Assembly: GCA_016190755.1 (NCBI GenBank)
Contig: JACPPY010000054.1
Span: 1-62,939 of the forward strand
Origin: Chloroflexota bacterium
GTDB taxonomy: Bacteria > Chloroflexota > Dehalococcoidia > JACPPY01
Length of the DNA: 62,939 nucleotides
Direction: 5' to 3'
In this document: positions 5,805 through 47,651 of the stretch, one piece after another
Numbering within the stretch: the first letter of the stretch is position 1
Layout of the letters: every line of letters starts with the position of its first letter
Notes under the pieces: model-generated
Told to the model about the DNA's origin: nothing
What the model saw: only the letters and a program-made list of their open reading frames with translations
Database searches by the model: none
Translations under genes and position numbers: made by a program

Positions 5805-5807
5805 AGT

Positions 5808-20081: not shown

Positions 20082-20283
20082 GATGACAGTTGCAGCCAAT
20101 CCGGAGATAAGTCGAGACCCTACAGAGAGGCGATGTGATAACAACGGCGAGGCGCTGGACAATTATGAGGTATAATCGCAGGGAATATCCGGCGCCTCGC
20201 CTGGCCGAAGCATCGATGTTATCCGGGGGGCCGCTCACACGTTTCACGCAGGAACACAGCAGTCAACAGGGAAACTCTCAGGG

Positions 20284-20790: not shown

Positions 20791-20801
20791 GTAAAGGTAT
20801 C

Positions 20802-31065: not shown

Positions 31066-32358
31066 TCAGCACTCAATACCCGGCACAGGGAAGCGCCTGC
31101 ACATTGACAGCACCTCCTGTCGCACACGGGCCTTCACGTCGGAGTCCTCGGTATTGGACACCACCGTAGTTATCATTCTTGCTATCTCGCGCATCTCACC
31201 GGCGCCAAATCCGCGAGTCGTTACCGCGGGTGTGCCCACTCGTATACCGCTGGCTATAGTCGGTGGCTGCCGGTCGAACGGTATGGCATTTCGGTTAACG
31301 ATTATGCCCACCTCTTCCAATGCGCGCTCGGCCTGCCGTCCAGTAACTCCTGTCTGGGACAGGTCTACCAGGGCTAGATGGCTCTGCGTGCCGCCGGCCA
31401 CCAATCGCAGTCCTCTCTGCTTCAGCTCGTTCGCCAGTGTAGCGGCGTTTTCCAATATGGAACGTTGGTACTCCGCGAAACCGGGCTGCATCGCCTCAAG
31501 GAAGCATACCGCCTTGGCGGCTATGGCATGCATAAAAGGCCCGCCTTGCATGCCGGGAAACACAGCAGAGTCTATGGCGCCGGCGAACTCGGACTTGCAC
31601 AGTATGAACCCTCCTCGAGGGCCGCGCATCGTCTTGTGCGTGGTGGACGTGACGATATGAGCATGCTGTACTGGGGAGGGATATACACCGGCAGCGATCA
31701 ACCCCGCCTGGTGCGCCATATCCACCATAAGCCTGGCGCCTGCGCCGTCCGCTATCTTGCGGAAGCGTCGCCAGTCCAGTACCAGCGGGTAAGCGCTGGC
31801 CCCGGCGACGATGAGCTTTGGCCGTGCCTCCCTGGACAGTTTCTCGACCTCGTCAAAGTCAATTTGCTCTGTCTGCCGGCTCACGCCGTATGAAACAAAG
31901 CGGTACACTTTCCCGGAAAAGTTCACCGGGCTACCGTGCGTCAGATGGCCGCCATGGCTCAGGCTCATGGCCATTATGGTGTCGCCCGGCTCGACGAGCG
32001 CCAGATATGCAGCCATATTGGCCTGCGAGCCGGCATGCGGCTGAACATTGGCGTGCTCGGCGTGAAATAGCTGCTTGGCCCGTTCTATCGCCAGCCGCTC
32101 AACAATGTCCACGTTGGCGCAACCGGCGTAGTAACGCCTGTCAGGATAGCCCTCGGCGTACTTGTTGGTCAGCACCGACCCCTGTGCCTCCATAACTGCC
32201 TTGCTGGCATAGTTCTCGGCAGCGATGAGTATGATGCTGTCCCGCTGGCGGTCCCTCTCAGACTGGATCGCCTTCTCTATCTCGGGGTCGAAACGGCCAA
32301 GTAGTCCGTTCGCTGTCCCGCACTCTTTTCCTGTTTTTGATGAGACCCGAGAAAACAT
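31066..32358 (-). CDS. glyA: Serine hydroxymethyltransferase
   Basis: 430 aa. [20 protein letters not shown] and the [17 protein letters not shown]-lysine motif. Confidence 0.97.
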
Positions 32359-32405
32359 ATTAAAAATCCCTCACGCGAGTATAACGATACGTGCCAGATA
32401 AACAG

Positions 32406-32431
32406 ATAGCCACGCTCGGCTGCGTGGCTAT
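32406..32431. terminator. Perfect 10-bp stem hairpin in the glyA upstream region
   Basis: ATAGCCACGC-tcggct-GCGTGGCTAT. On the minus strand it is followed by CTGTTTATCT. It may terminate the weak upstream ORF or act as a leader structure. Confidence 0.35.
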
Positions 32432-32526
32432 GTAAGGCCCTCATGCCCCGTTTGAACGGAGCGACAGAAAGTACTCAGCAACTGATTCAACGTAGAGACA
32501 CTACCCCACTTTGCAGCTTCACTAGT

Positions 32527-32841
32527 TTACATCCGACCCCGGCGAGTGTCAACCTCTTCCAGATACGAAACAGATAGGCTCATCCCCATCTCGACAAAGC
32601 TATGCCAGACCACACACAATACAAACCTAACACCTGATGGCATATGATCCCGCCAGACATTAAGCGAGAGCACTTGCCTGGGCATACCGGTGAGCACCAC
32701 ACGCGTGATAACCGGGTCAGTGTTGGGTGTCGGCTCTGCCAACCGCCTGTCCGCAGCGCGTTGGAACGTGACCACTCGCATCATCTGGCATAGATGTTCA
32801 CTATACCTGCTGCCGGGGTAGTAGCTGGACTTTTCTGTCAC
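32527..32841 (-). CDS. Hypothetical protein (weak call)
   Basis: 104-aa ORF with no recognisable motif. It is the only sizeable ORF in a 600-nt gap. Confidence 0.25.
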   Translation of the reverse strand: MTEKSSYYPGSRYSEHLCQMMRVVTFQRAADRRLAEPTPNTDPVITRVVLTGMPRQVLSLNVWRDHMPSGVRFVLCVVWHSFVEMGMSLSVSYLEEVDTRRGRM

Positions 32842-32953
32842 TTGGTCAGGGTTTTCCTTCCTGCTTAGTTGAAGCGTATGACGGGAGGCGCGACGGAAGC
32901 CAGTTAAGAAATAGGTAGCTAGCCCCCAATAGTTTCTGAGCGGCTTCCTCCGC

Positions 32954-34381
32954 CTACCGTGGCGTCAGAGATTCGATAAGCTGCCTCACGTTCTCGACGC
33001 TTTCCAAATCTTTGAGTAGGCCGACGGATTCACCAGCATTAACACCCTTTTGTGTGAGACTCGCATAATCCGCACACTCTCGGTATTTTTCAACTAGCTC
33101 ATCCCATTGGAGTGGCATTTCTGGGTATCCTTTAGCGATATTGCGTTTTTCATAAAACTTTCGACCATCTCTCAGTTTTATGGTCACCTTGCTTGCTCCC
33201 CATTTGGCATGGGTATGGGCGACCCCCTCTTCCCTTTTGAACTCGTCCTCTACTTCCGGATCGACTTCTACGTTGACCAACTTCAAAAAAGACTGGACAT
33301 CAGGTCTTCCTACCCGTTCGTCCGTATACTCTTGGAGCCCTGCTCTTCGATCCAGTATGGCTACCGCTATCCCATACCTACAGCTGTAGCGAGCATCCAA
33401 ACCGTTCTTTGGGCAACGGTAGAAGGCACCGATAGAGGCTATTGAGGAAGTAGCCCCCACCTCAACCCTTTCTACCTCCTCGGGTTTAATGTCATGCTTC
33501 TTCACCAGTTCCAGCGTAATATCTATTGGGACCGCCGGTGCTGTGGCCCCTGGATGCAGTTTTGTCGTCACATTCGGCAAAGCTAGGTCCCATCGAGTAC
33601 CGATTTCATCCACCATCCTGTCCAGATCATAGTTATTCTCCCCATTAAAGGTCGCGCAGAAACCGAAGTGGTCATGGCCGATACCTGGCACTCCTTCTAA
33701 GACATTTGTATCTGCGCTATAGCCCAGAGCTCCCAGTAGCGCGGCGATTACACCGTTCTTGGCTGCATTACCCGCGTGGAAAGGCTTGGTCATGGTGCCG
33801 ATATTCTTCCTTATACCTCCAGTCTCTGACGCGGCAATGCCTAAAGCGCACCGGGTTTTTCCCAGGTTCAGGTTCAGTAGCTTGCTGCATCCGATGGTCG
33901 CGCCGAAGCTACCCAATGTAGGGATAGGATGCCATCCCTTCAGTATGTGAAACGGCTGCACTCCCATGCTGATTCGTGCCTCCACCTCATAGCCCAATAT
34001 ATAGGCTTCCAATACCTGCTTGCCAGAGGCACCGAGATCATCAGCCATGGCCATTACGGCTGGAAGGACAACGGCGCTGATATGACTAATACCACTGATA
34101 CTTGTGTCGTCAAAGTCGAGGGCATGAGCTTCTACTCCGTTGACAAGAGCAGCGTTAGGCACAGATGTCCTCAGCTTGTGGCATAGAACACCAGCAGAAG
34201 GGCGCCCACCAATGTCTTTCACCAGGTCAAGAACGATGCCGGTGCATCTCTCTACTGAGCCGCCTATCATTACTCCCACTGTGTCCAGTATTCGTTCCTT
34301 GGCAACGGCCACGATCCCAGGAGGGATGTCGTTGTACGTCTTCTCCACCGCAAAACGAGCCAATGTTTCAGTTACTCCCAT
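32954..34381 (-). CDS. MmgE/PrpD-family protein (2-methylcitrate dehydratase-like), paralogue 1
   Basis: 475 aa. LARFAVEKTYNDIPPGIVAVAKERILDTVGVMIGG..., HALDFDDT and KPFHAGNAAKNGV are family motifs. Confidence 0.9.
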   Translation of the reverse strand: MGVTETLARFAVEKTYNDIPPGIVAVAKERILDTVGVMIGGSVERCTGIVLDLVKDIGGRPSAGVLCHKLRTSVPNAALVNGVEAHALDFDDTSISGISHISAVVLPAVMAMADDLGASGKQVLEAYILGYEVEARISMGVQPFHILKGWHPIPTLGSFGATIGCSKLLNLNLGKTRCALGIAASETGGIRKNIGTMTKPFHAGNAAKNGVIAALLGALGYSADTNVLEGVPGIGHDHFGFCATFNGENNYDLDRMVDEIGTRWDLALPNVTTKLHPGATAPAVPIDITLELVKKHDIKPEEVERVEVGATSSIASIGAFYRCPKNGLDARYSCRYGIAVAILDRRAGLQEYTDERVGRPDVQSFLKLVNVEVDPEVEDEFKREEGVAHTHAKWGASKVTIKLRDGRKFYEKRNIAKGYPEMPLQWDELVEKYRECADYASLTQKGVNAGESVGLLKDLESVENVRQLIESLTPR

Positions 34382-34492
34382 GGTAATCTCCTTGCTTTCT
34401 GATTCATTAGTGGGCGGGTAAACTGTTAACGATTCTCCACAACCGGAGGCGTATTTGTGAACTGAACGGCAACAGTCCGCGGGCGCCAGGAG

Positions 34493-35281
34493 CTACGGGA
34501 GATTGAAAATGCGCCTTGGATTGTCATAAAGTACCTTCGTAATATCCTCGTCGTTAAAGCCTAGTTTACGCATGTGTAATGCCGTCCTGGGCACCGCTAA
34601 TGGGTCGTTGCGGTGGAGAGCACGAGTATCACTGCTGACCAGTACCAGGTTGATGTCATTGTCCGCGACAATGCTGGCAGCATCCTCAGGGTTCAATCTC
34701 CTCGACGGAAGAACCGAGATTCCAGCGATGCAGCCGGAGCCGGTGATCACCTTGGCTGTCGTAGCATCAGCATGGGCAATGACGACTTTACCTCGCTCGA
34801 ACCCACAATCATCGATAATCCTCAAATACCGCTCAATCCACTTGGACCTCTCCGTAAAGGGCAAGTGTAGAACAACAGGCTTCTTATATTGTCCGGCGAT
34901 TCTGATCTGGGCCTTTAGTAGCTCCTCTTGCCTGCCCAAGTCCGCTACCGACTCTGGCTCCAGCCCAATTTCACCAACGCATACGACCCTATCTCGTTTT
35001 AAGTACCTGGGGAGCGACTCGAGGATCTTCTCGTAGTCTTCCGGGATAGCAAGCATTTTAAGGCCAAACATGACATAGACATCGATGAAGTAATCGGCAG
35101 CTCGCTTGGTCTCACCGTTTAGTGTGCGATCAGCATAATGGAATACTGCCTCGGATGAGGAGGCGATGAATCGCCCACCGGCTGCATCACTTATCACTGC
35201 CATTATGCCGGAAGCTGCCATCGCCTCCAGATCCATTACATCGAGTGACTCCGCTACTACGTGAGGGTCTATTAATAACAT
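34493..35281 (-). CDS. TIM-barrel metal-dependent hydrolase (TatD/amidohydrolase-like)
   Basis: 262 aa. IDPHV..., VCVGEIGLE, KPVVLHLP, VIAHAD, SSDT... and the C-terminal NPRRIFNL follow the TatD-like motif order. Confidence 0.6.
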   Translation of the reverse strand: MLLIDPHVVAESLDVMDLEAMAASGIMAVISDAAGGRFIASSSEAVFHYADRTLNGETKRAADYFIDVYVMFGLKMLAIPEDYEKILESLPRYLKRDRVVCVGEIGLEPESVADLGRQEELLKAQIRIAGQYKKPVVLHLPFTERSKWIERYLRIIDDCGFERGKVVIAHADATTAKVITGSGCIAGISVLPSRRLNPEDAASIVADNDINLVLVSSDTRALHRNDPLAVPRTALHMRKLGFNDEDITKVLYDNPRRIFNLP

Positions 35282-35702
35282 CCTGAACCTCCTGCGCAGC
35301 TTAGTTTTCGCAAATTTCTAGCCCATAGTACTATATAGTCGCTTCCAACACAAGGGGAATATCTCAACCCGCACATCAACCTTCATTGTCCCGGCTTCTT
35401 CTCTCTTAGACCGAATAGCCGACAGGAGGATCGGGCACCCGAAGCGGAAACCGGGCTCGGCTACCAGTGTGCACTTTCTCACTACAACATGTGTGTATCC
35501 AGAAATGCACCCATCGAGCCACTATATTGCAATGCAGCAACAATGATAACACGATTAACCGGCAGTAGTGGACGAGAGAGAAAAGTTATGATACAATCCG
35601 GTCAGCATCGTCGAGATTATTGTGGGCGATTACCTTCCTCGAGGAACCAACATGCTATTTGGCATCAGCCAAACACCTGACTTGCCAAGAAGGAGGAGGA
35701 TC

Positions 35703-36866
35703 ATGACGAGGACATTATGTGTAGCGGCTATTGTAACGGCTGTTGTAGTCGTATCTCTATCTGCATGTGGCAAACCGGCGCCCCAGCCTCCCCCGACTAC
35801 AGCCCCTGCACCCGCAGCCCCGTCTTCATCCCCAACGGCAGAGCCATCGCCAACAGCAAAACCAATATCCTCACCTTCGACCTGGCCCCTGGTCGACAGA
35901 CAGGCACAGGTTGAGGCCGCGGCCAAGAAGGAAGGGAAGGTTGTTCTCTGGTCACCTCACGCGAAACTTGCTCCACAATTTCTCGCCAAGTTCAAAGAGC
36001 GTTACCCCTGGTTGCAGCTAGAGACATGGGACGCTACAAGTACTGCCATCGTTGAGAAACTGGTTAGTGAGGCGAAGGTGGGCCGGTACAGTGTGGATGT
36101 GATAAGTGATGGAGAGCAGCAAGTCAGGTTGATTCCGAGAGATTTGCTGGCAAAGTATGATTGGCCTAACGCGGCAAAGTGGGCTTCGGAAGGGCTAGGG
36201 GGTACAGAGGGTTTCTACGTGCGCGACGTGATTGGCTTTTATGGCCCGGTCTACAACTCGAAGCTGGTCGTTGGCGCAGATATACCTAAGACCTGGAATG
36301 ATATCAAAGACCCAAAGTGGAAAGGCAAAACCTCCCTTGCCCTGGATGGCGACGAAGCACCTTTAATGCTAGCTGCCATGTGGGGTGGCAATGGGAAACT
36401 GGCATGGGAGGAGTCCTTTGCCTTCTGGCGAGAGGTGTCTAAGAACACTAAGCCAAAGACAGTGAAGGGATACACTGAGCCCACAAGGCTCCTCGGCGCC
36501 GGGGAATATGCGCTTTTTATCTGGGGGTCGTCTGGTGTCACTCTTCGAGCGCAAACAGATGGTGGGCTACCGGTAGCACATCCGCCGCTTGATCGTTTCC
36601 CAGGGACAGCGAAAGTGAAGACAATCTTGAAGAATGCGCCGCACCCCAATGCGGCACGGCTGCTTGTCGACTACATAACTTCGACCGAAGGATCAAGGAT
36701 CTACGCCGACGTTGTGGGTTATACTAGCCTCAATCCTGAAGCTGCCGGGGCATTGGCGAATCGCCGGTTTAAGGAGATTAAGGTTTACATAATGCCATCA
36801 GAGTTGGAAAGCACGGAAAACATGAAGAAATCCGCCGATTTCTGGGCCGCGCTGTTGGGTATATGA
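35703..36866 (+). CDS. ABC-transporter solute-binding lipoprotein (family 1, Fe3+/polyamine AfuA-PotD type), paralogue 1
   Basis: AGGAGGAGGA lies 3 nt before ATG 35703. MTRTLCVAAIVTAVVVVSLSACG lipobox, a P/A/T linker, then an SBP fold (VVLWSPH..., WKGK..., APHPNAARLLVDYITS). Confidence 0.88.
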   Translation: MTRTLCVAAIVTAVVVVSLSACGKPAPQPPPTTAPAPAAPSSSPTAEPSPTAKPISSPSTWPLVDRQAQVEAAAKKEGKVVLWSPHAKLAPQFLAKFKERYPWLQLETWDATSTAIVEKLVSEAKVGRYSVDVISDGEQQVRLIPRDLLAKYDWPNAAKWASEGLGGTEGFYVRDVIGFYGPVYNSKLVVGADIPKTWNDIKDPKWKGKTSLALDGDEAPLMLAAMWGGNGKLAWEESFAFWREVSKNTKPKTVKGYTEPTRLLGAGEYALFIWGSSGVTLRAQTDGGLPVAHPPLDRFPGTAKVKTILKNAPHPNAARLLVDYITSTEGSRIYADVVGYTSLNPEAAGALANRRFKEIKVYIMPSELESTENMKKSADFWAALLGI

Positions 36867-36916
36867 GAGGTGCGTCTTCTGAGTTGACAGGAACCAAACG
36901 ACATGGAGGAAGCAAA

Positions 36917-38335
36917 ATGACGACGACCGAAATTCTGTGTGATTTCTTGGTAGATACAGGTTATAGCGACATCCCAGGGGATGCTGTAAGAATAGCTAAG
37001 GAACGCATACTAGACACTGTAGGCGTGGCGCTTGCAGGAGCTGTCGAGCCGGCGGGTGCTGGCAGAATAGCAATAGAACTGGTAAAAGAGCTTGGCGGAT
37101 ACCCAACTTCTACGGTAATAGCAGGTGGCTTCAAAACATCTGCCCCTAATGCAGGGTTAGCCAATGGCACTGGTGCCGCTACTTTGGACTACGACGATAC
37201 CACCACTTATACAATCTGTCATTACAGCAGTTCTCTTATACCCGCCGTACTAGCACTAGCCGAAGAGACCAAGGTGTCGGGTAGGAAGCTTCTTGAGGCT
37301 TTCATCCTAGCCTGGGAAGCCGGAACTAGGATCGGTGAGTGTATGGGGGCCCCATCTTATTATCAGAGGGGCTTTCACACCCCCGGAACCTGGGCCTGCC
37401 TGGGCTGTGCCGCAGCCAGCGCAAAATTGCTGAATTGCAGTCGGGAACAGGTGAGGACAGCGCTGGCCGTTGCGGCCAGTGCGGCAGGCGGTATCAGGAA
37501 AACATATGGCACTAACACTAAGCCCTTGCACTCCGGCTATTCAGCAAGGAACGGAATCATAGCTGCGATGTTGGCCAAAAAGGGGTTTACTGCCGATAGG
37601 AATGTTCTGGACCGCGACCCCGAAGCCAAGGCTCACATGTGCTTTAGTTTCCCAGTAGTCTTTGCTGGAGAGGGGAATTACAACCTTAGCAAGGTAACTG
37701 AAGGGTTGGGTAAGTCATACAACTTAGTATCTAAGCCCATCGTCACAAAATTCCATCCAGGGCCAACTGCAATGGCACCCTTCATCGAGTTAGTGATAGA
37801 TATGATGAAGAGAAACTCGATCAGGGTTGACCAGGTTGAAAAGGTAGAGGTTAGAGCTATCCGTGAATGGGTCGAAGGCGTGTCACCCTTCTTGAGACCG
37901 CGGACAGGGGATGAAGCCAGATATAGTGCGCCCTATCAAATAGCTGTAGCGATGCTGGATGGCCAGGTTGGTATAGAGCAACACCGCGAAGAGCGTGTTC
38001 ATAGCTATGATGTCCAGGAGATGATGCAAAGGGTGCACCTTTCCGAGCTGAAGGGTAGTGAGGCGATCGTACGCAAACTAAGAGAGACTGCCAACATCGC
38101 CAAGATGGGTATTGGTGAATTGACCATCAAGCTTAAAGATGGACGGGAGTTTATTGGAAAAGTGGAACGGGGTCAGGGCTCATCGCCTCTCAAACGCCAA
38201 GATTTGCTTGCCAAGTATGAAGATTGTGCTAAGAGAGTGCTATCGTTGTCTGATGTAAAACGGTCAATCGAGTTAATTGAGAACCTGGAAAACCTGGACG
38301 ACGTTACCGAACTAATGGATCTACTTAGGGGATAA
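36917..38335 (+). CDS. MmgE/PrpD-family protein, paralogue 2
   Basis: GGAGGA lies 6 nt before ATG 36917. ILCDFLVDTGYSDIPGDAVRIAKERILDTVGVALAG..., TLDYDDT and KPLHSGYSARNGI. Confidence 0.9.
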   Translation: MTTTEILCDFLVDTGYSDIPGDAVRIAKERILDTVGVALAGAVEPAGAGRIAIELVKELGGYPTSTVIAGGFKTSAPNAGLANGTGAATLDYDDTTTYTICHYSSSLIPAVLALAEETKVSGRKLLEAFILAWEAGTRIGECMGAPSYYQRGFHTPGTWACLGCAAASAKLLNCSREQVRTALAVAASAAGGIRKTYGTNTKPLHSGYSARNGIIAAMLAKKGFTADRNVLDRDPEAKAHMCFSFPVVFAGEGNYNLSKVTEGLGKSYNLVSKPIVTKFHPGPTAMAPFIELVIDMMKRNSIRVDQVEKVEVRAIREWVEGVSPFLRPRTGDEARYSAPYQIAVAMLDGQVGIEQHREERVHSYDVQEMMQRVHLSELKGSEAIVRKLRETANIAKMGIGELTIKLKDGREFIGKVERGQGSSPLKRQDLLAKYEDCAKRVLSLSDVKRSIELIENLENLDDVTELMDLLRG

Positions 38336-38461
38336 ATTGAATGAATCCACTGTAACATATTCTAACCAAGTAGTACAGCGATTCAACCGCTATAGCTAGT
38401 CTCGGCAACACTGATAACACTATTAGCTCGACATGCTGACTTGCCAAGAAGGAGGAGGATT

Positions 38462-39649
38462 ATGACGAGGACGTTATATGTGGCGGCGATTGTAATGGCT
38501 GTTGTAGTCGTATCTCTATCTGCATGTGGCAAACCAGCGCCCCAGCCTCCCCCGACTACAGCCCCTGCACCCGCAGCCCCGTCTCCATCCCCAACGGCAA
38601 AGCCATCGCCAACCCCGCTCTCGCCGTCAACTTCGCCGTTGGTAAAACCATCTCCCTCATCTCCATCCCCAGTCGATAGACAGGCTCAGCTTGAGGCCGC
38701 GGCCAAGAAGGAAGGGAAGGTTGTTCTCTGGTCACCTCACGCGAAAATTGCTACAAAATTCCTCGCAAAATTTATGGAACGTTACCCCTGGTTGCAGCTA
38801 GAGACATGGGATGCTACAGGTACTGTCCTCATTGAAAAATTGGTAAGTGAGGCGAGGGTAGGCCGGCATAGCGTGGATGTGATGGCCATGGAAGAGCAGG
38901 GGGTCAGGCTGATTCCGAAGGATTTGCTGGCAAAGTATGACTGGCCTAGTGCGGCAAAGTATCCTTCAGAAGCGCTGGAGGGTACAGAGGGTTTGTACAT
39001 GCGGGACGCGCTGGCCTTCTACGGCCCGGTGTACAACACGAAGATAGTTCCCCCAACAAAGGCCCCACACTCGTGGCAGGACATGGCGGACCCAAAGTGG
39101 AAAGGCAAAACAGCTGTCCCTTTGGATGCCGACGAAGCACCTTTAATGCTAGCTGCCATGTGGGGCAGCAATGGGAAACTGGCATGGGAGGAGTCCTTTG
39201 CCTTCTGGCGAGAGGTGTCTAAGAACACTAAGCCAAAGACAGTGAAAGGATACAGCGAGCCCACAAGGCTCCTCGGCGCCGGGGAATACGAGCTTTTCCT
39301 CTGGGATGCGTCAAGTATCGCGCTTCAAGCGCAGTTAGCTGGGCTGCCGGTGGCGTTTGCCTCGGTTGATCGCTTCCCAGCGGCGGCGAGAATTAAGACA
39401 ATCTTGAAGAATGCGCCGCACCCCAATGCGGCACGACTGCTTGTCGACTACATAACTTCGACCGAAGGATCAAGGATCTACGCCGACGTTGGGGCTTACA
39501 TCAGTCTCAACCCTGAAGCTGCCGAGGCATTACTGAATCGCCAAATGAAAGAGACAGGCACCAAGCTTTATATAGTGCCCACCGAATTGGAAAGCATGGA
39601 GAATTTGAAGAAATCCGCCGATTTCTGGGCCGCGCTACTGGGTATATAA
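38462..39649 (+). CDS. ABC-transporter solute-binding lipoprotein, paralogue 2 (mosaic near-identity to paralogue 1)
   Basis: Same RBS, signal peptide and lipobox as paralogue 1 (MTRTLYVAAIVMAVVVVSLSACG). Long nucleotide blocks are nearly identical to 35680-36720. Confidence 0.88.
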   Translation: MTRTLYVAAIVMAVVVVSLSACGKPAPQPPPTTAPAPAAPSPSPTAKPSPTPLSPSTSPLVKPSPSSPSPVDRQAQLEAAAKKEGKVVLWSPHAKIATKFLAKFMERYPWLQLETWDATGTVLIEKLVSEARVGRHSVDVMAMEEQGVRLIPKDLLAKYDWPSAAKYPSEALEGTEGLYMRDALAFYGPVYNTKIVPPTKAPHSWQDMADPKWKGKTAVPLDADEAPLMLAAMWGSNGKLAWEESFAFWREVSKNTKPKTVKGYSEPTRLLGAGEYELFLWDASSIALQAQLAGLPVAFASVDRFPAAARIKTILKNAPHPNAARLLVDYITSTEGSRIYADVGAYISLNPEAAEALLNRQMKETGTKLYIVPTELESMENLKKSADFWAALLGI

Positions 39650-39778
39650 ATCAGGAACTGAGCAATGCAGGAAGTATGTTCCTACCTCATGGTGCTGTAC
39701 CATATAGTGCTGTGGTTGTGATGGTAACGGTAGGATAGGAGAGGGCCCGCCCTCGGCCACGCTGGGGGTGAAATCGAG

Positions 39779-41524
39779 TTGGAGCCAGCGAGTTTGAGCA
39801 CACGGTTCTTGGATGCCTGCCGTGCCCTAAAGCAAAGGGGGCGCGAGAGGTGTGTCTTCTTAGTGATAGGTTTGCCCCTGGTATTCCTCGTTGTCGTGCC
39901 GCTGTTTCTATTGGTACTCAATAGTTTCCGAGATATCGGCTTTGGTGAGGTTGCGGTCGCTCTCAACAAGTTCACTCTGGATAACTATATCACTGCCTAC
40001 ATGAACCCGAGGACATGGAGGATGCTGGGGAACAGCATCGTCTTTGCCGTTGGCTCGATGGTTGTTGCTTTCGTATTGGGTGGTGTAATGGCGTTCCTCG
40101 CGGAGCGGACCGACTCTCCCTTCCGACGTTTCACCTACGCACTAATGTTCATGCCACTCATCATACCAGGAATGCTGCAGGCGGTAGCCTGGGTTCTCCT
40201 ATTGAGCCCCAGTATTGGTCTGGTGAACAAGCTGTGGTCTGCCATCGGATTCGGCACCCCTCTCCTTAATGCCTACAGCATGCCGGTGATGTGGTGGGTG
40301 CAGGGCGTCATTTTGGCGCCTCTCACCTTTATCATGCTCGGAGCGGCCTTTCGCCGGATGGACCCTGCCCTGGAGGAAGCCGCCATCACCTGCGGTGCGC
40401 CACTGAGCAGGGTGGCAACACAGGTTACTCTCAAGGTCATCCTGCCGGCGATTGTTGGCGTGGCCCTGCTCCAGTTTGTGCGGGCCCTCGAAGCTTTGGA
40501 GGTGCCCTTGCTACTGGGTCTTAGCGGAGACGTTATGGTGTTTAGCGCCAACATCCTGCTTTCAATAACGATGAGGTTCCCGCCAGCGTATGGCCTCGGT
40601 TTTACCTATTCCATAACCCTTATCAGTCTCACTGTCTTCGGACTTTTCGTCTATCAGAGGGTGGTGCGAAGAGGCGAGAGATATGCAGTAGTCACCGGCA
40701 AGGGATATCGCCCTCGTATTATTAAACTTGGCAGATGGAAGGCACTTGCAGTTGGTTTCCAGATATTCTTCGCGGTCGTCGCCATCGGCCTTCCGGTCCT
40801 CGTGTTGCTGTGGGCCTCACTACTGCCCGCCTATCAGGCTCCCTCAATGGAGATGCTGTCCAAGGTCAGCCTCAAGAATTACTCCATGGTATTCGATCGT
40901 CCCGACATGCTGCATATGCTCCAAAATACTGCCTTATTGGCGGGTGTCGTTAGTGTCTGTGTCATGTTCCTGGCCCTCTTGCTCTCATGGGTCATTTTCC
41001 ATATGAAGATAAAGGGATCTGGCTTTCTTGACAGCCTAGCTTTCATCCCTTACGCCATACCCTCAGTCGTCACGGGCATTGCCTTCATGGTACTGTTCCT
41101 TGCCTTCCCTAACCCTGTGTACGGAACCATCTGGATCCTGGTGATCGCCTATATCGTAGTTGAGCTGCCCTACGGCACCCGTTTTACCCATGCCGGTCTC
41201 TTGCAGGTCCATAAGGAGATGGAGGAGGCAGGCAAGATCTCTGGCGCGAGCTTCTGGAGAGTGTTCTTCCATGTCATCGTGCCGATTATGAAGCCTTCGC
41301 TTACTGGCGGTGGGCTATATGTATTCATCATATCTGTCAAGTACTTTTCCATAGCCGCCATCCTGTCGTCGTCTCAAAGTATCGTGCTCTCTGTGCAAAT
41401 CTGGCAACTGTGGAACGAAGGTGGGCTGGGGGCGTTAGCGGCTTTGGCCATAATCATGATCGCAGGGCTTAGCGTTCTCACGCTACTGGGAGGGGTGCAC
41501 AGAATAGAACGGATTGTTGGCTAA
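39779..41524 (+). CDS. Fused double ABC-transporter permease (2 x BPD_transp_1, FbpB/AfuB type), paralogue 1
   Basis: 581 aa with about 12 TM segments and two EAA-like loops (RRMDPALEEAAITCGA; VHKEMEEAGKISGAS). Confidence 0.9.
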   Translation: MEPASLSTRFLDACRALKQRGRERCVFLVIGLPLVFLVVVPLFLLVLNSFRDIGFGEVAVALNKFTLDNYITAYMNPRTWRMLGNSIVFAVGSMVVAFVLGGVMAFLAERTDSPFRRFTYALMFMPLIIPGMLQAVAWVLLLSPSIGLVNKLWSAIGFGTPLLNAYSMPVMWWVQGVILAPLTFIMLGAAFRRMDPALEEAAITCGAPLSRVATQVTLKVILPAIVGVALLQFVRALEALEVPLLLGLSGDVMVFSANILLSITMRFPPAYGLGFTYSITLISLTVFGLFVYQRVVRRGERYAVVTGKGYRPRIIKLGRWKALAVGFQIFFAVVAIGLPVLVLLWASLLPAYQAPSMEMLSKVSLKNYSMVFDRPDMLHMLQNTALLAGVVSVCVMFLALLLSWVIFHMKIKGSGFLDSLAFIPYAIPSVVTGIAFMVLFLAFPNPVYGTIWILVIAYIVVELPYGTRFTHAGLLQVHKEMEEAGKISGASFWRVFFHVIVPIMKPSLTGGGLYVFIISVKYFSIAAILSSSQSIVLSVQIWQLWNEGGLGALAALAIIMIAGLSVLTLLGGVHRIERIVG

Positions 41525-41577
41525 GCATCCCTGTGCCAGAGCCATTCGCCGACGGCCATGGTGCCTGGATCTGGGAG

Positions 41578-41611
41578 AAAGGCGCAAAAAATCAACCGCC
41601 TTTTTGAATTT
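41578..41611 (+). terminator. Candidate intrinsic terminator after permease 1
   Basis: AAAGGCG-caaaaaatcaac-CGCCTTT followed by TTGAATTT. Confidence 0.45.
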
Positions 41612-41837
41612 GCGATTTACGGCTTAATATCAAGGCGACTACCACCGAAATCCTGCAAAATCCCGCAATAAGAACAATCGTTCCCTCAAAGCTCTCACAA
41701 AATGTTTTGCGGTAAGTTCCCTCCCATTGCACTCGGCCTTTCCAGAAAGTTGTGCTCGTCAAAGCAGAGTAATTGAGTTAGGGCATTTGTCGCCATCATG
41801 CTGGGTGACTGTTTGTGACTTTAGCGGAATTATGTAC

Positions 41838-41866
41838 TTGACAGCAGTTCATTTTTTGGTTACCAT
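41838..41866 (+). promoter_or_regulatory. Candidate sigma-70-type promoter for the selenoprotein operon
   Basis: TTGACA - 17 nt (T-rich) - TACCAT. It sits in the only AT-rich stretch of the cluster, about 140 nt upstream of ATG 42008. The same TTTTTG(G)TTACCAT architecture occurs upstream of thrS. Confidence 0.45.
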
Positions 41867-42007
41867 CAAGACACTAAACGACTTATTGTCCTAATGATGG
41901 AACCCCAGGAACGCAGCATAGGGCGATTTGCTGTTTATGCGTCAGGATTGCGGAACAAATGTGTTAGCCATCATAAGACTGCATTAGCTATATGAGGAGG
42001 ATTGTCT

Positions 42008-42562
42008 ATGTGCGAAGCAGCTGTGACTTTGGTGAACCCAGTTGGGCATCCCCGCAATGAGGACCCAATAAAAGAGGTTGCGTGGCCAGTAGACCTGAGC
42101 CATAAGACAGTGATCTTGATCGACAACACCAAGCCGAAGGCTGACCTAATACTTGAATTGTTCGCAGGGGCCATTCAGGAGCATTTCCCCGGAGTGCGAG
42201 TGATCCACAGGCGAAAATCTGGCGCGGTTTCCCCAGCACCATTCCTGCATGAACTGAATGGCATGGCCGACCTAGCCATCAATGCAGTGGCGGATTGAGG
42301 GGGCTGCACAACGTGGAGTGTCCACGACGCAGTCAAGTTACGTCAGCGGGGAATTCCAGCGGTGGTTGTCTGTAGCCATGACTTCAGCGCCCTGGCACGA
42401 AGCGTGGCACGGGCCTGTGGTGTCGATGACCCTCGACTGGTTATCCTGCCCCACCCGCTTGGCTCTCTCCCTGACCAGGCCATAAAGACCATAATAAGAC
42501 GCGGACATGACGAGATCATGTCTGTGCTTACCGGTAAGAAGAGATACACGGAGGTGGCGTAA
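42008..42562 (+). CDS. Candidate selenoprotein, UxxC (U-G-G-C) motif, UGSC-family-like; in-frame TGA at 42296-42298 read as Sec
   Basis: ORFs 42002..42298 and 42362..42562 share a frame, and the 63 nt between them carry no stop. The joined product is ...MADLAINAVAD-U-GGCTTWSVHDAVKLRQRGIPAVVVCSHDF...RLVILPHPLG.... GAGGAGG lies 8 nt before ATG 42008. A SECIS-like hairpin follows the TGA. Confidence 0.65.
42304..42332 (+). other. Candidate bacterial SECIS hairpin
   Basis: CUGC-ACAA-CGUGGA-GUG-UCCACG-AC-GCAG. It starts 6 nt after the UGA. The apical GUG loop is 22 nt from the U of the UGA. Confidence 0.5.
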
Positions 42563-43647
42563 TGGCTGTGGCCGATGAAATCGTAGTGTCTGGGTCTTAC
42601 GATGCGATCTACGAATTCTGTCTGCAACAGGGGTGGACTGACGGCCTTCCTGTTGTACCGCCGACACGCGAACGAGTGGGTGCTATGCTTGAGTGGACTG
42701 ACAGGGATGCCGATGAAGTGGTCGGTTCTATCCCGCCACTCAATGGCCATGCAAGCATACGAAAGATCGCTGCAAACGCAGTGATGGCAGGATGTCGTCC
42801 CAATTATCTGCCTGTTGTTATTACTGCGGTGGAAGCCCTGTTGGACAAGGGGTTCAATCTGGACGCCGTGCAGCCGACAACTGGACCAATAACACAATTG
42901 GTAATCGTCAATGGACCCGTCGCCCGAGAGTTGGGCATCAATGCTGGGACAACGGCCTTCGGCCCGGGATGGCGCAGTAACGCCACCATTGGTCGAGCCA
43001 TACGGTTGATCCTCGTGAACATTGGTGGCGCGAAACCCGGCGAGGTGAATCAAAAGACCCAAGGGCAGCCGGGCATGTTCAGCTTGTGTGCTGCCGAAAA
43101 TGAGGCCCGCAGCCCCTGGGAACCGTTCCATGTCGAACATGGCATTCCAGCGGAACACAGCGCAGTGACCGTCTTTGCCACATTCCCTGGATATGACATC
43201 CACGAGGGGGAAACAGCAAACGATATCTTGACAAACCTCTCTCGTGAGACTGGGGGCATGACACGTAAGCTTGTCAACGGAGGGGAGCATGTTGTCGCAC
43301 TATGCCCGGAACACGCTCAGATCCTAGCAAGTGCAGGCTTTTCAAAGCAGCAGGTAAAAGAATTCCTTTGGCAGCATGCTGGAGCTCCCCTGGCTCACCT
43401 TGTGCCATATTTCCAGCGACTTGCTCGCCTACGGCGGGCAAATGTATTTCAAGTAGAAAGCGGAGACGACACCTGGCTGCCTATTGCCGATCGACCGGAC
43501 CAGATCCATGTGATTGTGGTTGGTGGAACGTCGCGTCACTCGACCTATTTCCCCTGCTTCAGCTACTCTCGGTTTGCATCTAGGCGCATCACAAATCATT
43601 GTGGCCAGGCCATTCGCTCAGTCAAGGATCTGTTCCGGAACAGCTGA
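42562..43647 (+). CDS. Uncharacterised conserved-looking protein, translationally coupled to the selenoprotein gene
   Basis: 361-aa ORF. Its ATG overlaps the upstream TAA (TAATG). Motif-like stretches: GWTDGLPVVPPT, AANAVMAGCRPNYLPVV, QPTTGPITQLVIVNGP, FGPGWRSNATIGRAIRL, CAAENEARSPWEPFHVEHG. I cannot assign a family. Confidence 0.8.
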   Translation: MAVADEIVVSGSYDAIYEFCLQQGWTDGLPVVPPTRERVGAMLEWTDRDADEVVGSIPPLNGHASIRKIAANAVMAGCRPNYLPVVITAVEALLDKGFNLDAVQPTTGPITQLVIVNGPVARELGINAGTTAFGPGWRSNATIGRAIRLILVNIGGAKPGEVNQKTQGQPGMFSLCAAENEARSPWEPFHVEHGIPAEHSAVTVFATFPGYDIHEGETANDILTNLSRETGGMTRKLVNGGEHVVALCPEHAQILASAGFSKQQVKEFLWQHAGAPLAHLVPYFQRLARLRRANVFQVESGDDTWLPIADRPDQIHVIVVGGTSRHSTYFPCFSYSRFASRRITNHCGQAIRSVKDLFRNS

Positions 43648-43751
43648 AAGTAGGTCGTATTTCTACGTATTTCTATAGAACCAAGGGAGATGTTCCATAA
43701 GTCAAGCATCTATAACGATATCTAGCGAATAATATTCGCAAGGAGGATCAA

Positions 43752-44945
43752 ATGGAAAGGAAAAGGCTGTCAGTCCTGGTCGCCCTTGTTCTACCGGCTC
43801 TGGTTTTGTTCGCGTCGTCTTCCATAGTCGCTTGCTCTAGCTCAACTACACCACGACCGTCTTCGTCCTCGACGGCGCAACCATCGGCCATACCTTCATC
43901 TTCACCGTCGCCAACAGTCAAGCCATCACCTCTGCCCTCGCCTTCGGCCTCACCTTCACCGACAGTGAATCGGCAGGAGCAGCTTGAAGCTGCTGCCAAG
44001 AAAGAAGGGGCTGTCACGTTCTGGGCAACTTATGCGACAGAGGCGAACAAATATCTCGCACCATTCAAGGAGCGTTACCCCTGGCTAAAAGTGGAAGTCT
44101 GGCAGTCTACGAATGCGCCCATCGTCGACAAAATGCTTGCTGAGGCCAAGGCAAGTAAGTATAGCGTGGATGTCTTTGGCTTAGCTGAAGAAACTGCGGT
44201 GCAAGTCCCAGCCAGTTTCTATGCCAAGTATGATTGGCCTAGTGCGGCGAAATGGCCTGCCGAGACGCGGCAACAAGAGGGGTTGTACCTGCGCACGACT
44301 GTCAACGCGCAGGGCCCGGTTTATAATACAAAGGCAGTTCCCGCGGCGGAGATCCCGAAAACCTGGGAGGACATGGCAAACCCGAGATGGAAGGGGAGAA
44401 CCGTCGTTTCCCTTGAGACTGACGAAGCCGTACTGGTACTAGCCGCCATGTGGGGGGAAGGAAAGGAAGGGAAGCTGGACTGGGACAGGGCCTTGAGCTT
44501 CTGGCAGAACTTCTTCAAGAACACTCAGCCGAAGACTGGGTCGGGATTTACAACTCCAACCAAGCTCATGGTCGCCGGGGAATACGATCTCTTCCCATAT
44601 GGCTCGGTCAATGCGGCAGTGAGGATGAAGGCGACCGAAGGGTCACCGCTAGGGTTTATTCCTGTTCAGTATCCGGCAAGACCGTCCGTGCTGGCAATTG
44701 CCAAGGATGCTCCTCATCCTAATGCGGCAAGGCTATTGGCCGACTACATGACTTCGGACGAAGGAAGTGTGCTGTTCTCAAATACTATGTATATGGCTTC
44801 CCTTAGTCCGGCTGCTGAAAACTCGATACCCCTCCGTATGTACGCTGAGATGGGTCTGAAGCGTTACATATTGCCTGCGGCCTTGATGACTGCCGAGAAT
44901 ACGAAGAAATCTGGCGAGTTATGGAAGAAACTACTCGGTGTCTAG
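43752..44945 (+). CDS. ABC-transporter solute-binding lipoprotein, paralogue 3 (more divergent)
   Basis: AAGGAGGA lies before ATG 43752. Lipobox IVAC, an S/P-rich linker, and the same fold landmarks as paralogues 1 and 2 (ERYPWL.VE.W, YDWPSAAKW, WKG(K/R)T, APHPNAARLL.DY.TS). Confidence 0.88.
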   Translation: MERKRLSVLVALVLPALVLFASSSIVACSSSTTPRPSSSSTAQPSAIPSSSPSPTVKPSPLPSPSASPSPTVNRQEQLEAAAKKEGAVTFWATYATEANKYLAPFKERYPWLKVEVWQSTNAPIVDKMLAEAKASKYSVDVFGLAEETAVQVPASFYAKYDWPSAAKWPAETRQQEGLYLRTTVNAQGPVYNTKAVPAAEIPKTWEDMANPRWKGRTVVSLETDEAVLVLAAMWGEGKEGKLDWDRALSFWQNFFKNTQPKTGSGFTTPTKLMVAGEYDLFPYGSVNAAVRMKATEGSPLGFIPVQYPARPSVLAIAKDAPHPNAARLLADYMTSDEGSVLFSNTMYMASLSPAAENSIPLRMYAEMGLKRYILPAALMTAENTKKSGELWKKLLGV

Positions 44946-45063
44946 TAGGAGTCGAGATAGACTGACTGCAGGGTGATGTCTCCACAGACGCAAGTCCTGA
45001 GTGGCTTGAGAGGGCTCATACATGTGGTTTCGCACCTTGAAGACCGCCCATCATTTGGGGGGC

Positions 45064-46800
45064 ATGAATTTATCTGCCCGTTTCCTGCATGGTTACGGTA
45101 CCCTGAAGCGGAGTAAGGGTGAAGTCTCCATACTTGTCGTTGCCGGGGCTTTTTTGGGAGTCTTCGTCGTATTCCCTCTCCTGTTGCTGGTACTCAACAG
45201 CTTCCGGGATATCGGTTTGGGTGAAATTGGGCTTGCCTTTGACAAGCTTACCTTAGGAAACTATTCCATCGCCTACATGAACCCAAGAACGTGGAAAATG
45301 CTGTGGGATAGCCTTGTCTTTGCCGGTGGTGCCGCGGTTGTCGCTTTCTTGCTGGGTGGTGGCATGGCATTTATTACCGAGCGGACTAATGCTCCCTTCC
45401 GGCACCTCACCTACGGGTTGATGTTCGTGCCCCTCATCGTTCCGGGAATGCTGCTCTCTATAGGCTGGATCTTCCTGCTCAGCCCGAAAATCGGCCTGCT
45501 AAACAAGGCGTGGATGTCGATCGGGTTTCATACACCTTTTTTGGACGTCTACAGTATGCCTGTGATGTGGTGGATCCAAGGAGTAATGGAGTCTCCGCTT
45601 ACGTTTCTTATGCTGGGTGCCGCTTTTAGGCGCATGGATCCGTCCCTGGAAGAAGCCGCTATTGCTTGTGGAACCTCGAGAGTTAATTGTGCCATTAGGA
45701 TAACGCTGAAGCTAATGCTTCCGGCAATCGCAGGGGTGGCTCTCCTCCAGTTTGTACGTGGTCTTGAAGCTATGGAGGTGCCGCTGATTCTTGGCCTCAA
45801 TTCCGGTATCAAGGTATTCAGTGTTAACATTTTGCTCTCGCTTCAGGAGGTCTCACCGCCTGACTATGCTCTCGGCTTTACCTACGGCATAAGCCTGATC
45901 TGCCTTACTGTTGCGGGGCTCTTCATTTATCTCAGGATGATGAGACAATCCGAGAAGTATGTAGTTGTAACAGGCAAGGGATATAGGCCGGGGATTATTA
46001 ACCTCGGCAAATGGAAGTTTGCGGCAGCGGGTTTCCAGATCTTCTTCGGAGTCGCGGCAATAGGGCTTCCTCTTCTGGTATTGATCTGGGTCTCACTACT
46101 GCGTAGCTACGAGGTTCCCTCGATAGAGATGTTGTCCCAGATGAATCTGGATAAGTACACGTCAATAATTGGTCGGCCCGGGATGACGTCCGTGATTCTG
46201 AACACTGTTGTAGTAGCGGCCATTGCCAGCGTCTGTGTCATGTTCTTATCAATCCTGCTTTCCTGGATCGTTTTCCATATGAAGATAAAGGGGGGTGCGA
46301 TTCTTGACGGATTGGCTTTTATTCCCTATGCCATACCCTCAATAGCTATGGCTATTGCTTTCATGGTTCTGTTCCTTTCCTTCAGGAACCCGATCTACGG
46401 CACCATCTGGATTTTAGTAATAGCGTACGTCATACGCTTCATGCCCTACGGCACGCGCTTCACCCATGCCGGCCTGTTGCAGATCAAGAAGGAGTTGGAG
46501 GAAGTAGCTCTCACGGCTGGCGCGAGTTACTGGAAAATGTTCCTCCGTATCATCATCCCTATTATGAAACCCTCGCTTGTCGGGGGTGGTCTGTATGTGT
46601 TCATTCTGTCTGTGAAGATTTTCCCCATTGCCGCTCTCCTCTCGTCGCCCAACAGTAAGGTGCTTGCGGTAGAAATCTGGCAAATGTGGAATGTGGGAAT
46701 GTTTGGGGAGGTTTCTGCTCTCGCTGTGATGATGATCGGGGGTCTGAGCATTCTCACCCTTCTGGTTGGAACACGGACGCTGGGCCAGATTACAGGCTAG
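45064..46800 (+). CDS. Fused double ABC-transporter permease, paralogue 2
   Basis: Aligns along its length with 39779..41524 (MNLSARFL... versus MEPASLSTRFL...). GGGGGG lies before ATG 45064. The track start at 45022 is the alternative. Confidence 0.9.
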   Translation: MNLSARFLHGYGTLKRSKGEVSILVVAGAFLGVFVVFPLLLLVLNSFRDIGLGEIGLAFDKLTLGNYSIAYMNPRTWKMLWDSLVFAGGAAVVAFLLGGGMAFITERTNAPFRHLTYGLMFVPLIVPGMLLSIGWIFLLSPKIGLLNKAWMSIGFHTPFLDVYSMPVMWWIQGVMESPLTFLMLGAAFRRMDPSLEEAAIACGTSRVNCAIRITLKLMLPAIAGVALLQFVRGLEAMEVPLILGLNSGIKVFSVNILLSLQEVSPPDYALGFTYGISLICLTVAGLFIYLRMMRQSEKYVVVTGKGYRPGIINLGKWKFAAAGFQIFFGVAAIGLPLLVLIWVSLLRSYEVPSIEMLSQMNLDKYTSIIGRPGMTSVILNTVVVAAIASVCVMFLSILLSWIVFHMKIKGGAILDGLAFIPYAIPSIAMAIAFMVLFLSFRNPIYGTIWILVIAYVIRFMPYGTRFTHAGLLQIKKELEEVALTAGASYWKMFLRIIIPIMKPSLVGGGLYVFILSVKIFPIAALLSSPNSKVLAVEIWQMWNVGMFGEVSALAVMMIGGLSILTLLVGTRTLGQITG

Positions 46801-46976
46801 TTGTCCTTTATTCAATCTGCACTAGCGCCTGCCGGACAGAAGGCTCTCTTACGCTACCTCCCCTTGTCACTTGTTTGCAGCGTCAGTCACAACGAAGGTA
46901 AAATGGCCTCGCGTCCAGGGTGGTACCTTAGCACGGATGCGCACTGGGAAAGACGAAACTCTGGAGGGTGAAACGG

Positions 46977-47231
46977 ATGGATGACCAATTGGTGAAGCTG
47001 AAGACCGTTCTGGAAGAGCGCGAGCGTGTATATCGTAAGGTGGTCCAGGACTACGAGCACTACAAGCGAAACCCGCCGGGCACGCCTGACGGCAACATCG
47101 TGGCCCTGGAGGGGAGTGTGCACAGCCTGTTCAGCGCAGTGCAAGACCTGATGGGTGGATACCAAGCCTATATATCTGTGTTGGAGGAGACGTTGCCCCG
47201 GGGCACATCGGCAAAAAGCGTCAGCGGATGA
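46977..47231 (+). CDS. Small hypothetical coiled-coil protein
   Basis: GGAGGG lies 9 nt before ATG 46977. The product MDDQLVKLKTVLEERERVYRKVVQDYEHYKRNPPG... looks more protein-like than the antisense 133-aa ORF. Confidence 0.5.
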   Translation: MDDQLVKLKTVLEERERVYRKVVQDYEHYKRNPPGTPDGNIVALEGSVHSLFSAVQDLMGGYQAYISVLEETLPRGTSAKSVSG

Positions 47232-47330
47232 CATGCCTGTCATTCTCCCCAGGTCAATCGATGGTACAATCAATGTTGAATTAGCCACTCAGCAAGCAAG
47301 TGCTGGCTGTGCGGCAGTACGGAGGTATCA

Positions 47331-47648: not shown

Positions 47649-47651
47649 GGC

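Follow-up and report, generated by a model that had tools for sequence, protein, structure and literature searches.

A cluster of ABC importer genes without a local ATPase gene, combined with MmgE/PrpD-like enzymes and a UGSC selenoprotein module, in a Chloroflexota contig

We analyzed a cluster of ten genes at positions 32954-46800 of a 62,939-nt contig from a Chloroflexota bacterium (JACPPY010000054.1, assembly GCA_016190755.1), the whole of which is called the window below. The gene map was based on a listing of open reading frames (ORFs) and on Pfam and NCBIfam profile searches, and it confirmed the content, order, and positions of all ten genes given in a preliminary description of this DNA. 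Two genes on the minus strand, encoding an MmgE/PrpD-type enzyme and a hydrolase, are followed on the plus strand by genes for three solute-binding proteins (SBPs), a second MmgE/PrpD-type enzyme, two fused permeases of ATP-binding cassette (ABC) importers, and a selenoprotein of the UGSC family with its partner protein. The whole cluster lies inside a low-GC block of ~15 kb (~32.3-47.3 kb; 32300..47300), whose GC content in a composition profile was ~0.52 versus 0.58-0.60 in the flanks.

The three SBP genes, all on the plus strand, lie at 35622-36866 (SBP1, with a likely true start at the ATG near 35703), 38441-39649 (SBP2), and 43752-44945 (SBP3). A lipobox followed by a Pro/Ser/Thr-rich linker was found in each of the three proteins, together with matches to the SBP_bac_6, SBP_bac_8, or SBP_bac_1 families; SBP1, which matches SBP_bac_8 and SBP_bac_6, has the lipobox LSAC before its linker, and SBP3 has IVAC. 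Pfam matches, the paralogue comparison, and the lipobox identify SBP2 as a lipoprotein and a recent duplicate of SBP1; the two are 76% identical, their DNA is up to 95% identical at the 5' end, and they account for the DNA repeats D1 and D3-D7. SBP3 is 48% identical to both. The closest solved structure to SBP2 is an SBP annotated as part of an "iron ABC transporter" (7f6p, 72 bits), and P5PA (6wce) is detectable at 26 bits. The similarity to the iron-annotated SBPs is weak, at ~70-75 bits, and P5PA and binders of 2-aminoethylphosphonate (2-AEP) are also resembled. These comparisons support the assignment of the three SBPs as predicted lipoproteins of the Fe3+/AfuA/2-AEP class. In FbpA proteins, the iron ligands are adjacent tyrosines, Tyr195/Tyr196 in VmFbpA and Tyr219/Tyr220 in TtFbpA (PMC10804667). 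A sequence-level test for such a dyad was negative: none of the three SBPs contains a YY dipeptide.

The two permeases (permease 1, 581 amino acids [aa], 39779-41524, +; permease 2, 592 aa, 45022-46800, +) are fused proteins with a double transmembrane domain (TMD), each containing two BPD_transp_1 domains. Permease 1 is PhnU2-like along its full length by NCBIfam, and among solved structures an iron ABC permease (9j4r) comes closest to it. A pattern search located the EAA loops in the second halves of the two proteins, EAGKISGASFWRVFFHVIVP and EVALTAGASYWKMFLRIIIP, and EAA-type loops were read from the translations of the first halves, LEEAAITCGA in permease 1 and LEEAAIACGT in permease 2. 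With two BPD_transp_1 domains and an EAA-type coupling loop per half in each permease, and with lipoboxes in all SBPs, the transporter parts look intact and ATPase-dependent. The paralogue richness noted in the preliminary description is real: the SBPs are 48-76%, the permeases 63%, and the two PrpD-like proteins 40% identical to each other.

The window sequence is present in two groundwater-metagenome runs (X1 and X2), and Logan contigs from X2 revealed variation in the transporter genes. In one contig (depth, 11.4), the 3' ends of SBP1 and SBP2 are directly linked (36822 to 39606), which leaves out 2,783 bases that hold the second MmgE/PrpD gene (PrpD_B) and most of SBP2; the two sides of the join share 31 letters. 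This could reflect a population variant with a single SBP and without PrpD_B, or a k-mer collapse of the 85%-identical paralogues. Another contig, covering permease 2 from 45181 to 46597, differs by 49 substitutions, mostly transitions, indicating that a second diverged allele or strain with this permease is present in the X2 sample.

No importer-type ABC ATPase was found in the 62.9-kb window by a six-frame scan for Walker A and LSGGQ motifs, by Pfam searches of the longer ORFs, or by tblastn (E<=10) with 29 ATPases taken from homologous operons, and the absence noted earlier for 14 kb around the importers thus holds for the whole window. The sole ABC ATPase encoded there (5808-6791, -) lies 26 kb away in a MarR/ABC-2 exporter operon, a compact unit at 4983-7243 (-) made up of a MarR regulator, the ABC ATPase, and an ABC-2 membrane protein. 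A noncoding gap of 483 bp (41525-42007, +) follows permease 1, at the position of the ATPase gene in homologous operons such as locus L164, in which an SBP, a permease, an ATPase, UGSC, and its partner are encoded in this order. The gap contains a promoter-like site at 41838-41866, found by a promoter scan, and a ribosome-binding site (RBS), GAGGAGG, at 41994-42000. A pseudogenized ATPase was considered and rejected, since tblastn with the 29 family ATPases (E<=10) gave no remnant in this gap or in the ~530 bp after permease 2. Apparent matches inside the permease genes were an artifact of chimeric long ORFs among the queries.

We then placed this layout among related transporters by scanning metagenome contigs with permease 1 and taking the loci of its 80 closest relatives. 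An ABC ATPase gene was found within 3 kb in 40 of them, mostly directly downstream, and it starts at most 152 bp from the permease in 34 of these 40. Another 17 have no ATPase gene in at least 1.5 kb of sequence on both sides, and 9 of the 17 have none in at least 5 kb; with 23 of the 80 undecidable, the ATPase-less share of the decidable loci is 17/57 (~30%). In a neighbor-joining tree of 83 permeases, the two permeases of the window pair together, and their sister clade (L085, L086, L087, L088, and L090) has no ATPase-linked member, all of its decidable members lacking the gene. A second clade of 15 permeases holds nine ATPase-less members and no ATPase-linked one, and the ATPase-linked loci are found elsewhere in the tree. 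Since the ATPase-less permeases form clades that include the two of the window, the layout, judged from this tree, is an inherited, clade-wide trait and not an accident. It had been described as a departure from the norm for such importers, but it is not exceptional, as relatives in whole clades are built alike and the P5PAB importer, which works with AfuC, provides a tested precedent (PMC8427247).

Other arrangements were seen within the same permease family. Loci of the sister clade have the permease in a cupin-SBP-UbiD-permease arrangement; in L085 and L086, the closest relatives of permease 1, the order is cupin, SBP, a UbiD-family decarboxylase on the opposite strand, and permease, with no ATPase, which suggests that this clade serves the catabolism of aromatic or unsaturated acids in other genomes. 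Components also appear to be shared: L127 encodes SBP, permease, SBP, permease, and a single ATPase, in L113, a single permease and a single ATPase go with five SBPs, and L055, from a metagenome-assembled genome (MAG) of Acidobacteriota, combines five SBPs with one permease and lacks an ATPase over 21 kb. On this gene content, component sharing occurs within the permease family.

Both MmgE/PrpD-type enzymes of the cluster, PrpD_A (475 aa, 32954-34381, -; PF03972 and PF19305) and PrpD_B (36863-38335, +; ORF of 490 aa, with a database call of 472 aa starting near 36917), have the two family domains, MmgE_PrpD_N and MmgE_PrpD_C, which scored 203 and 101 bits in one paralogue and 192 and 82 bits in the other (cutoff, 32.1). 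On the other hand, they were far from reaching the PrpD equivalog cutoffs, with scores of 54.7 (PrpD_A) and 45.8 against 950 for NF042438 and of 16.5 and 15.0 against 575 for NF006943. The closest solved structures are in both cases iminodisuccinate (IDS) epimerase (2hp3 for PrpD_A, 193 bits; 2hp0 for PrpD_B, 150 bits), followed by cis-aconitate decarboxylases, and the scores against characterized MmgE/PrpD members span 113-193 bits. By these scores, the two enzymes are not true PrpD and are closest to IDS epimerase and cis-aconitate decarboxylase. The known substrates of the MmgE/PrpD family, to which an (S)-(R)-methylsuccinate isomerase has been added, all share a C4-dicarboxylate substructure that is held by conserved residues (PMC12290011).

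The orthologues of PrpD_B that we compared were 48-74% identical to it. Those with 48-61% identity lie, together with a second PrpD gene, directly after TRAP (tripartite ATP-independent periplasmic) transporter genes (DctPQM), or beside an NMT1-type ABC transporter and a LacI regulator. The closest relatives (66-74%) lie on short contigs with unrelated neighbors and no transporters. Upstream of PrpD_A on the same strand is a gene for a TatD-like TIM-barrel metal-dependent hydrolase (262 aa, 34493-35281, -). Its residues 57-260 match PF01026 with 69 bits, its score for TIGR00010 (YchF/TatD subfamily) is 45.5 against a cutoff of 206, and its closest solved structure is the uncharacterized AF_1765 (3guw). 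The protein is best treated as a putative generic hydrolase of the amidohydrolase superfamily, not as a TatD DNase.

Between the two permeases lies a gene for a UGSC-family selenoprotein (184 aa, 42008-42562, +) with selenocysteine (Sec) at codon 97. This codon, TGA at 42296-42298 in the motif A-D-U-G-G-C, is the only in-frame TGA, and an independent Logan contig running without differences from the end of permease 1 into the UGSC gene (40516-42317) confirmed it. The protein scored 135.2 bits for PF24696 (cutoff, 25) and 123.7 for NF041046, whose cutoff is 125, when scored with Cys in place of Sec; in homologue alignments, the Sec position is occupied by a stop codon in 89 sequences and by Cys in 3. 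The RBS described above lies 8 nt before the ATG. A hairpin starts 7 nt 3' of the UGA, but its folding energy does not stand out against shuffled sequences (z = -0.26), and selA, selB, selC, and selD were not found in the 62.9-kb window. Profile and sequence searches of the PDB gave no match for UGSC.

The stop codon of the UGSC gene overlaps the start of the next gene (TAATG), so that the encoded protein, the UGSC partner or "Unknown_1" domain protein (361 aa, 42562-43647, +), is translationally coupled to it. The partner contains no Sec; the "selenoprotein pair" of the preliminary description therefore consists of one selenoprotein, UGSC, and a non-Sec protein. It belongs to a large family, with at least 7,986 homologues in one search and 7,801 clusters at 50% identity (E<=1e-3) in another, for which we found no Pfam or NCBIfam model and no PDB relative by sequence, profile, or fold. 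Its invariant residues include C78, C176, H190, E192, and H326. An assignment of function from an AlphaFold2 model (pLDDT 85, pTM 0.86) was rejected, as the best PDB matches (E value, 0.034; TM score, ~0.22), which were Toblerone-fold cyclic amide hydrolases and YjgF proteins, are too remote to be informative. Fusion or neighborhood of UGSC and Unknown_1 was reported in 2008 by Zhang and Gladyshev (PMC2398784), and many members of the partner family are fusions of a UGSC-like domain with the partner. In the fusions P0354, P0359, and P0377, some UGSC-like domains have neither Sec nor Cys at the U-x-x-C position ("IAEIGGSLFG" and "GFGWSGVYTIW"), which indicates that the redox motif is not universal in the family.

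The neighborhoods of the partner were compared at 80 genome loci anchored on it, from Dehalococcoidia, Rokubacteria, Betaproteobacteria, Binatia, and others. A UGSC gene was present within the locus in 74 of the 80. The commonest neighbor of the UGSC/partner pairs was a TctC receptor (16 of 150 neighboring genes), and luciferase-like monooxygenases, family III CoA-transferases, DUF6282 proteins, and MmgE/PrpD enzymes were also common. The partner gene directly adjoins a PrpD gene in three lineages (L035, L057, and L076), and the ABC permease type of the window was found within 10 kb in 2 of the 80 loci. L055 has, among its SBP genes, an ORF long enough for a UGSC-partner fusion. From these gene contexts, the UGSC/partner module tends to sit in solute-receptor and catabolic settings and does not seem tied to this ABC family. 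It is possible, though we hold this only tentatively, that UGSC and its partner form a two-component Sec-dependent enzyme acting on carboxylates delivered by binding-protein-dependent transporters.

We consider it about 60% probable that the block is a lineage-specific island through which organic acids built on a C4-dicarboxylate core are imported and converted, with the ATPase encoded elsewhere. Such an island would contain a tandem pair of paralogous type I ABC importer modules, each with a lipoprotein SBP and a fused permease, plus one extra duplicated SBP. The permeases would be energized in trans, probably by the ATPase of a paralogous complete system, in the arrangement called a "multitask" nucleotide-binding domain (NBD), as for MsmX, MsiK, and AfuC; because the ATPase-less layout is heritable in the permease lineage, another part of the genome most likely supplies the ATPase. 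The cargo is probably a single organic acid, or several related ones, with a C4-dicarboxylate (succinate-like) core, which the two IDS-epimerase-like MmgE/PrpD enzymes would isomerize, dehydrate, or decarboxylate in the cytoplasm. The TatD-like hydrolase would process the cargo further, possibly together with the UGSC selenoprotein and its partner.

The organic-acid reading follows from the closeness of both PrpD paralogues to IDS epimerase and cis-aconitate decarboxylases, from the C4-dicarboxylate substrates of their family (PMC12290011), and from the TRAP, NMT1, and TctC neighbors of related genes. As the SBPs resemble iron binders weakly and lack the Tyr-Tyr dyad, an organic acid with a dicarboxylate core is the best guess for their ligand. 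The suggestion of carboxylate uptake and processing made in the preliminary description thus gains indirect support from the TRAP and NMT1 transporters beside PrpD_B orthologues and from TctC beside UGSC/partner pairs, but the ligand itself we only infer. Its further suggestion of a Sec-dependent step embedded in a single pathway is plausible, but the cluster is not conserved as a unit, and its parts (UGSC/partner, PrpD, and the transporter) are found apart from one another in many different contexts.

Several observations weigh against the organic-acid island. The nearest solved relatives of the SBPs are annotated as iron binding, at ~70-75 bits. Nowhere among the loci examined was the whole cluster conserved; the gene-neighborhood comparison that had been proposed on the basis of PrpD_B and the selenoprotein showed no whole-cluster synteny. 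The closest relatives of UGSC/partner (51-69% identity) and of PrpD_B (66-74%) stand in unrelated contexts, on short contigs with different neighbors, and a PrpD gene lies within 10 kb of the partner in 10 of the 80 partner loci, a modest enrichment. A stretch of 114 nt at the right border of the block (47052-47165) was uncovered by Logan contigs in both runs, although such holes also occur in the flanks at this low coverage. Finally, the donor ATPase was not located in the search, which covered this 62.9-kb contig.

Two alternatives concern the missing ATPase itself. It could be an artifact of assembly or binning, with the low-GC block misjoined and an ATPase or regulator gene lying just beyond it, as had been raised earlier as a way in which the unusual layout might dissolve. 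The abrupt GC change at both borders, the uncovered stretch on the right, and a left join that passes through a glyA word common to many genomes (depth, >1000) would fit such a misjoin. However, the depth of Logan contigs over the block tracks that of the flanks in both runs (~9.1 versus 10 in X1 and ~7.1 versus 7.4 in X2), and independent contigs span three junctions: the left, glyA-side border (32152-32601 and 32540-33976), the end of permease 1 into UGSC, and the stop codon of permease 2 (46610-47051). Misassembly is therefore unlikely. The 250 bp after permease 2, contiguous with its stop codon in the independent contig, contain no ATPase start, compared with the distance of at most 152 bp seen in most ATPase-linked relatives; none follows permease 1 either, where the junction is spanned, and the sister permease clade is likewise ATPase-less. 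Taken together, these data make an artifact very improbable. Equally little, and if anything slightly less, speaks for a decaying transporter whose ATPase gene was deleted and whose leftover SBP and permease genes are nonfunctional. The 483-bp gap sits where L164 has its ATPase gene, as a deletion might leave it, but none of the five transporter ORFs is shortened or has lost its motifs, no trace of an ATPase gene was detected, and the layout is common to whole clades. Moreover, the modules were duplicated and retained, and the 63% identity of the permeases points to an old duplication.

The other alternatives concern what the genes do together. Because the cluster is not conserved as a unit, its genes could be neighbors without a shared pathway, that is, a patchwork of three or four independent modules with no common substrate: a duplicated SBP/permease set, the MmgE/PrpD enzymes with the hydrolase, and a UGSC/partner pair that merely lies between the transporter copies. 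The recurrence of each module alone in many unrelated contexts, the promoter-like site and 483-bp gap that UGSC/partner has upstream, and the presence of this permease type near the partner in only 2 of 80 loci are all in line with a patchwork. Yet eight of the ten genes share a strand and are separated by short gaps, paralogous transporter modules flank UGSC/partner on both sides, the same combination arises independently in L164, L055, and L021, and the partner adjoins PrpD in three lineages, so we regard a patchwork as a serious but minority possibility. Uptake of a metal or metal chelate, in which the SBPs would bind Fe3+ or a metal-(amino)polycarboxylate and the IDS-epimerase-like enzymes would process the chelator, seems improbable to us. 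It would account for the iron annotation of the nearest solved SBPs and permease and for the closeness of both PrpD paralogues to the epimerase of the chelator iminodisuccinate. On the other hand, the adjacent Tyr-Tyr dyad (PMC10804667) is lacking in all three SBPs, their similarity to iron SBPs is limited to ~70-75 bits, their class also holds binders of sugar phosphates, pyridoxal-5'-phosphate, and 2-AEP, and a set of three SBPs in which SBP3 shares only 48% identity with the other two points to several organic ligands.

Upstream of the low-GC block are hrcA-grpE-dnaK, secA, prs, and glyA (31066-32358, -), the left neighbor of the block; downstream are a Zn-ribbon gene, a LigD_N-only phosphoesterase gene, and thrS-infC-pheST. 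Proteins of Chloroflexota/Dehalococcoidia MAGs share 75-79% identity with ThrS, and the genome looks Dehalococcoidia-like. Since these relatives keep thrS-infC-rpmI-rplT-pheST and have different genes upstream of thrS, the block is lineage-specific and accessory. Neither a tRNA nor an integrase nor flanking repeats were seen as markers of the block, and mobile-element boundaries were rejected, the sole direct or inverted repeats being the paralogous genes themselves. An Rfam search of 32-48.9 kb gave no riboswitch or other RNA match at the gathering threshold or at E<=1. The preliminary description was also right that the cluster holds no transcription factor gene, as no DNA-binding domain was found in ORFs of 32.4-48.9 kb at a Pfam E value of <=0.01; for an accessory block of 15 kb, there is nothing remarkable in having no regulator. 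Between the cluster and thrS lies a 108-aa ORF (48262-48588, -) without a Pfam hit, the C-terminal part of which looks winged-helix-wing-like by eye; if it encodes a small regulator, it is the candidate nearest to the cluster.

Some other features of the contig may be mentioned. The Zn-ribbon protein, of FmdB type with a Lys/Ala-rich tail, and the LigD protein that follows it, a stand-alone 3'-phosphoesterase domain of 128 aa that has neither a ligase nor a polymerase domain in its vicinity, are encoded at 47331-48038 (+). A DUF5666/DUF1344 protein, a sigma factor of the extracytoplasmic function type, and a DUF5667 protein, a putative anti-sigma factor, are encoded in a row at 19323-22313 (+), and a HicA-like ORF lies at 4449-4931. 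When a collection of 15 billion proteins is clustered at 90% identity, DnaK, RecA, GlyA, ThrS, and SecA each remain alone in their cluster, suggesting that the genome belongs to a sparsely sampled lineage.

A missing ATPase gene at an importer locus of this permease family should not be counted as an anomaly or as a sign of a broken system. Whole clades built in this way imply that shared ATPases exist outside the well-studied sugar importers, which matters for counts of transporter repertoires in uncultured Chloroflexota. In addition, the locus offers a concrete setting for the UGSC module, which is abundant in aquatic metagenomes and has been without a function since 2008: the ligands of three adjacent, purifiable receptors and two MmgE/PrpD enzymes could point to the substrate of UGSC, and this entry point to UGSC/partner function may be the main value of the locus. 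Were UGSC and its partner indeed a two-component Sec enzyme, the window would show it wired into an ATPase-less ABC importer with MmgE/PrpD enzymes, and the locus would be one instance of a widespread, uncharacterized catabolic system, the partner family alone comprising more than 7,800 clusters.

Among known systems, the closest precedent for the transporter is the p5pAB operon of Actinobacillus (PMC8427247). It holds genes for an AfuA-like SBP and for a fused permease resembling AfuB but none for an ATPase, and its products function with AfuC, the ATPase of a paralogous system. This pyridoxal-5'-phosphate importer of A. pleuropneumoniae shares with the window an AfuA-class SBP, a fused BPD_transp_1 permease, and the lack of an ATPase gene, and its SBP, P5PA, is a detectable relative of SBP2. 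However, the similarity is very distant (26 bits), and in the window two permeases and three SBPs are encoded in tandem, with catabolic enzymes and a selenoprotein module embedded among them. It also belongs to a Chloroflexota genome of monoderm type, with lipoprotein SBPs. Multitask NBDs have been described for the type I sugar importers served by MsmX, MsiK, and MsmK (PMC7658222), in which operons lack an NBD gene and one ATPase encoded elsewhere energizes several SBP/permease sets. The window resembles them in its intact SBP and permease genes, the absence of an NBD gene at the locus, and the retention of this layout among relatives. Unlike those CUT1 systems, which have two separate TMD genes, its permeases are fused and of the Fe3+/2-AEP/polyamine type.

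The enzymes also have recognizable relatives. Both domains of the MmgE/PrpD family, which includes IDS epimerase, cis-aconitate decarboxylase, methylsuccinate isomerase, and 2-methylcitrate dehydratase, are present in both paralogues of the window, which differ from the dehydratase PrpD itself in scoring far below its equivalog cutoffs. UGSC and its partner correspond to the UGSC/Unknown_1 pair (PMC2398784; PF24696 and NF041046), being the same two-gene module with Sec at the conserved position. The motif in the window is U-G-G-C, not U-G-S-C, and the placement of the module between two ABC importer modules is uncommon. In Betaproteobacteria such as Bordetella and Cupriavidus, orphan receptor genes of the Bug/TctC type lie next to those of catabolic enzymes, and UGSC/partner pairs are often found in such settings. 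These loci share with the window a paralogue-rich layout of receptors and enzymes without nearby membrane or energy components, but their transporters are of the tripartite tricarboxylate, secondary class and not ABC. The preliminary description had recognized no described pathway in the architecture as a whole, and we likewise found no described match; the cluster is best filed as shared-NBD-dependent ABC importers beside uncharacterized members of known families.

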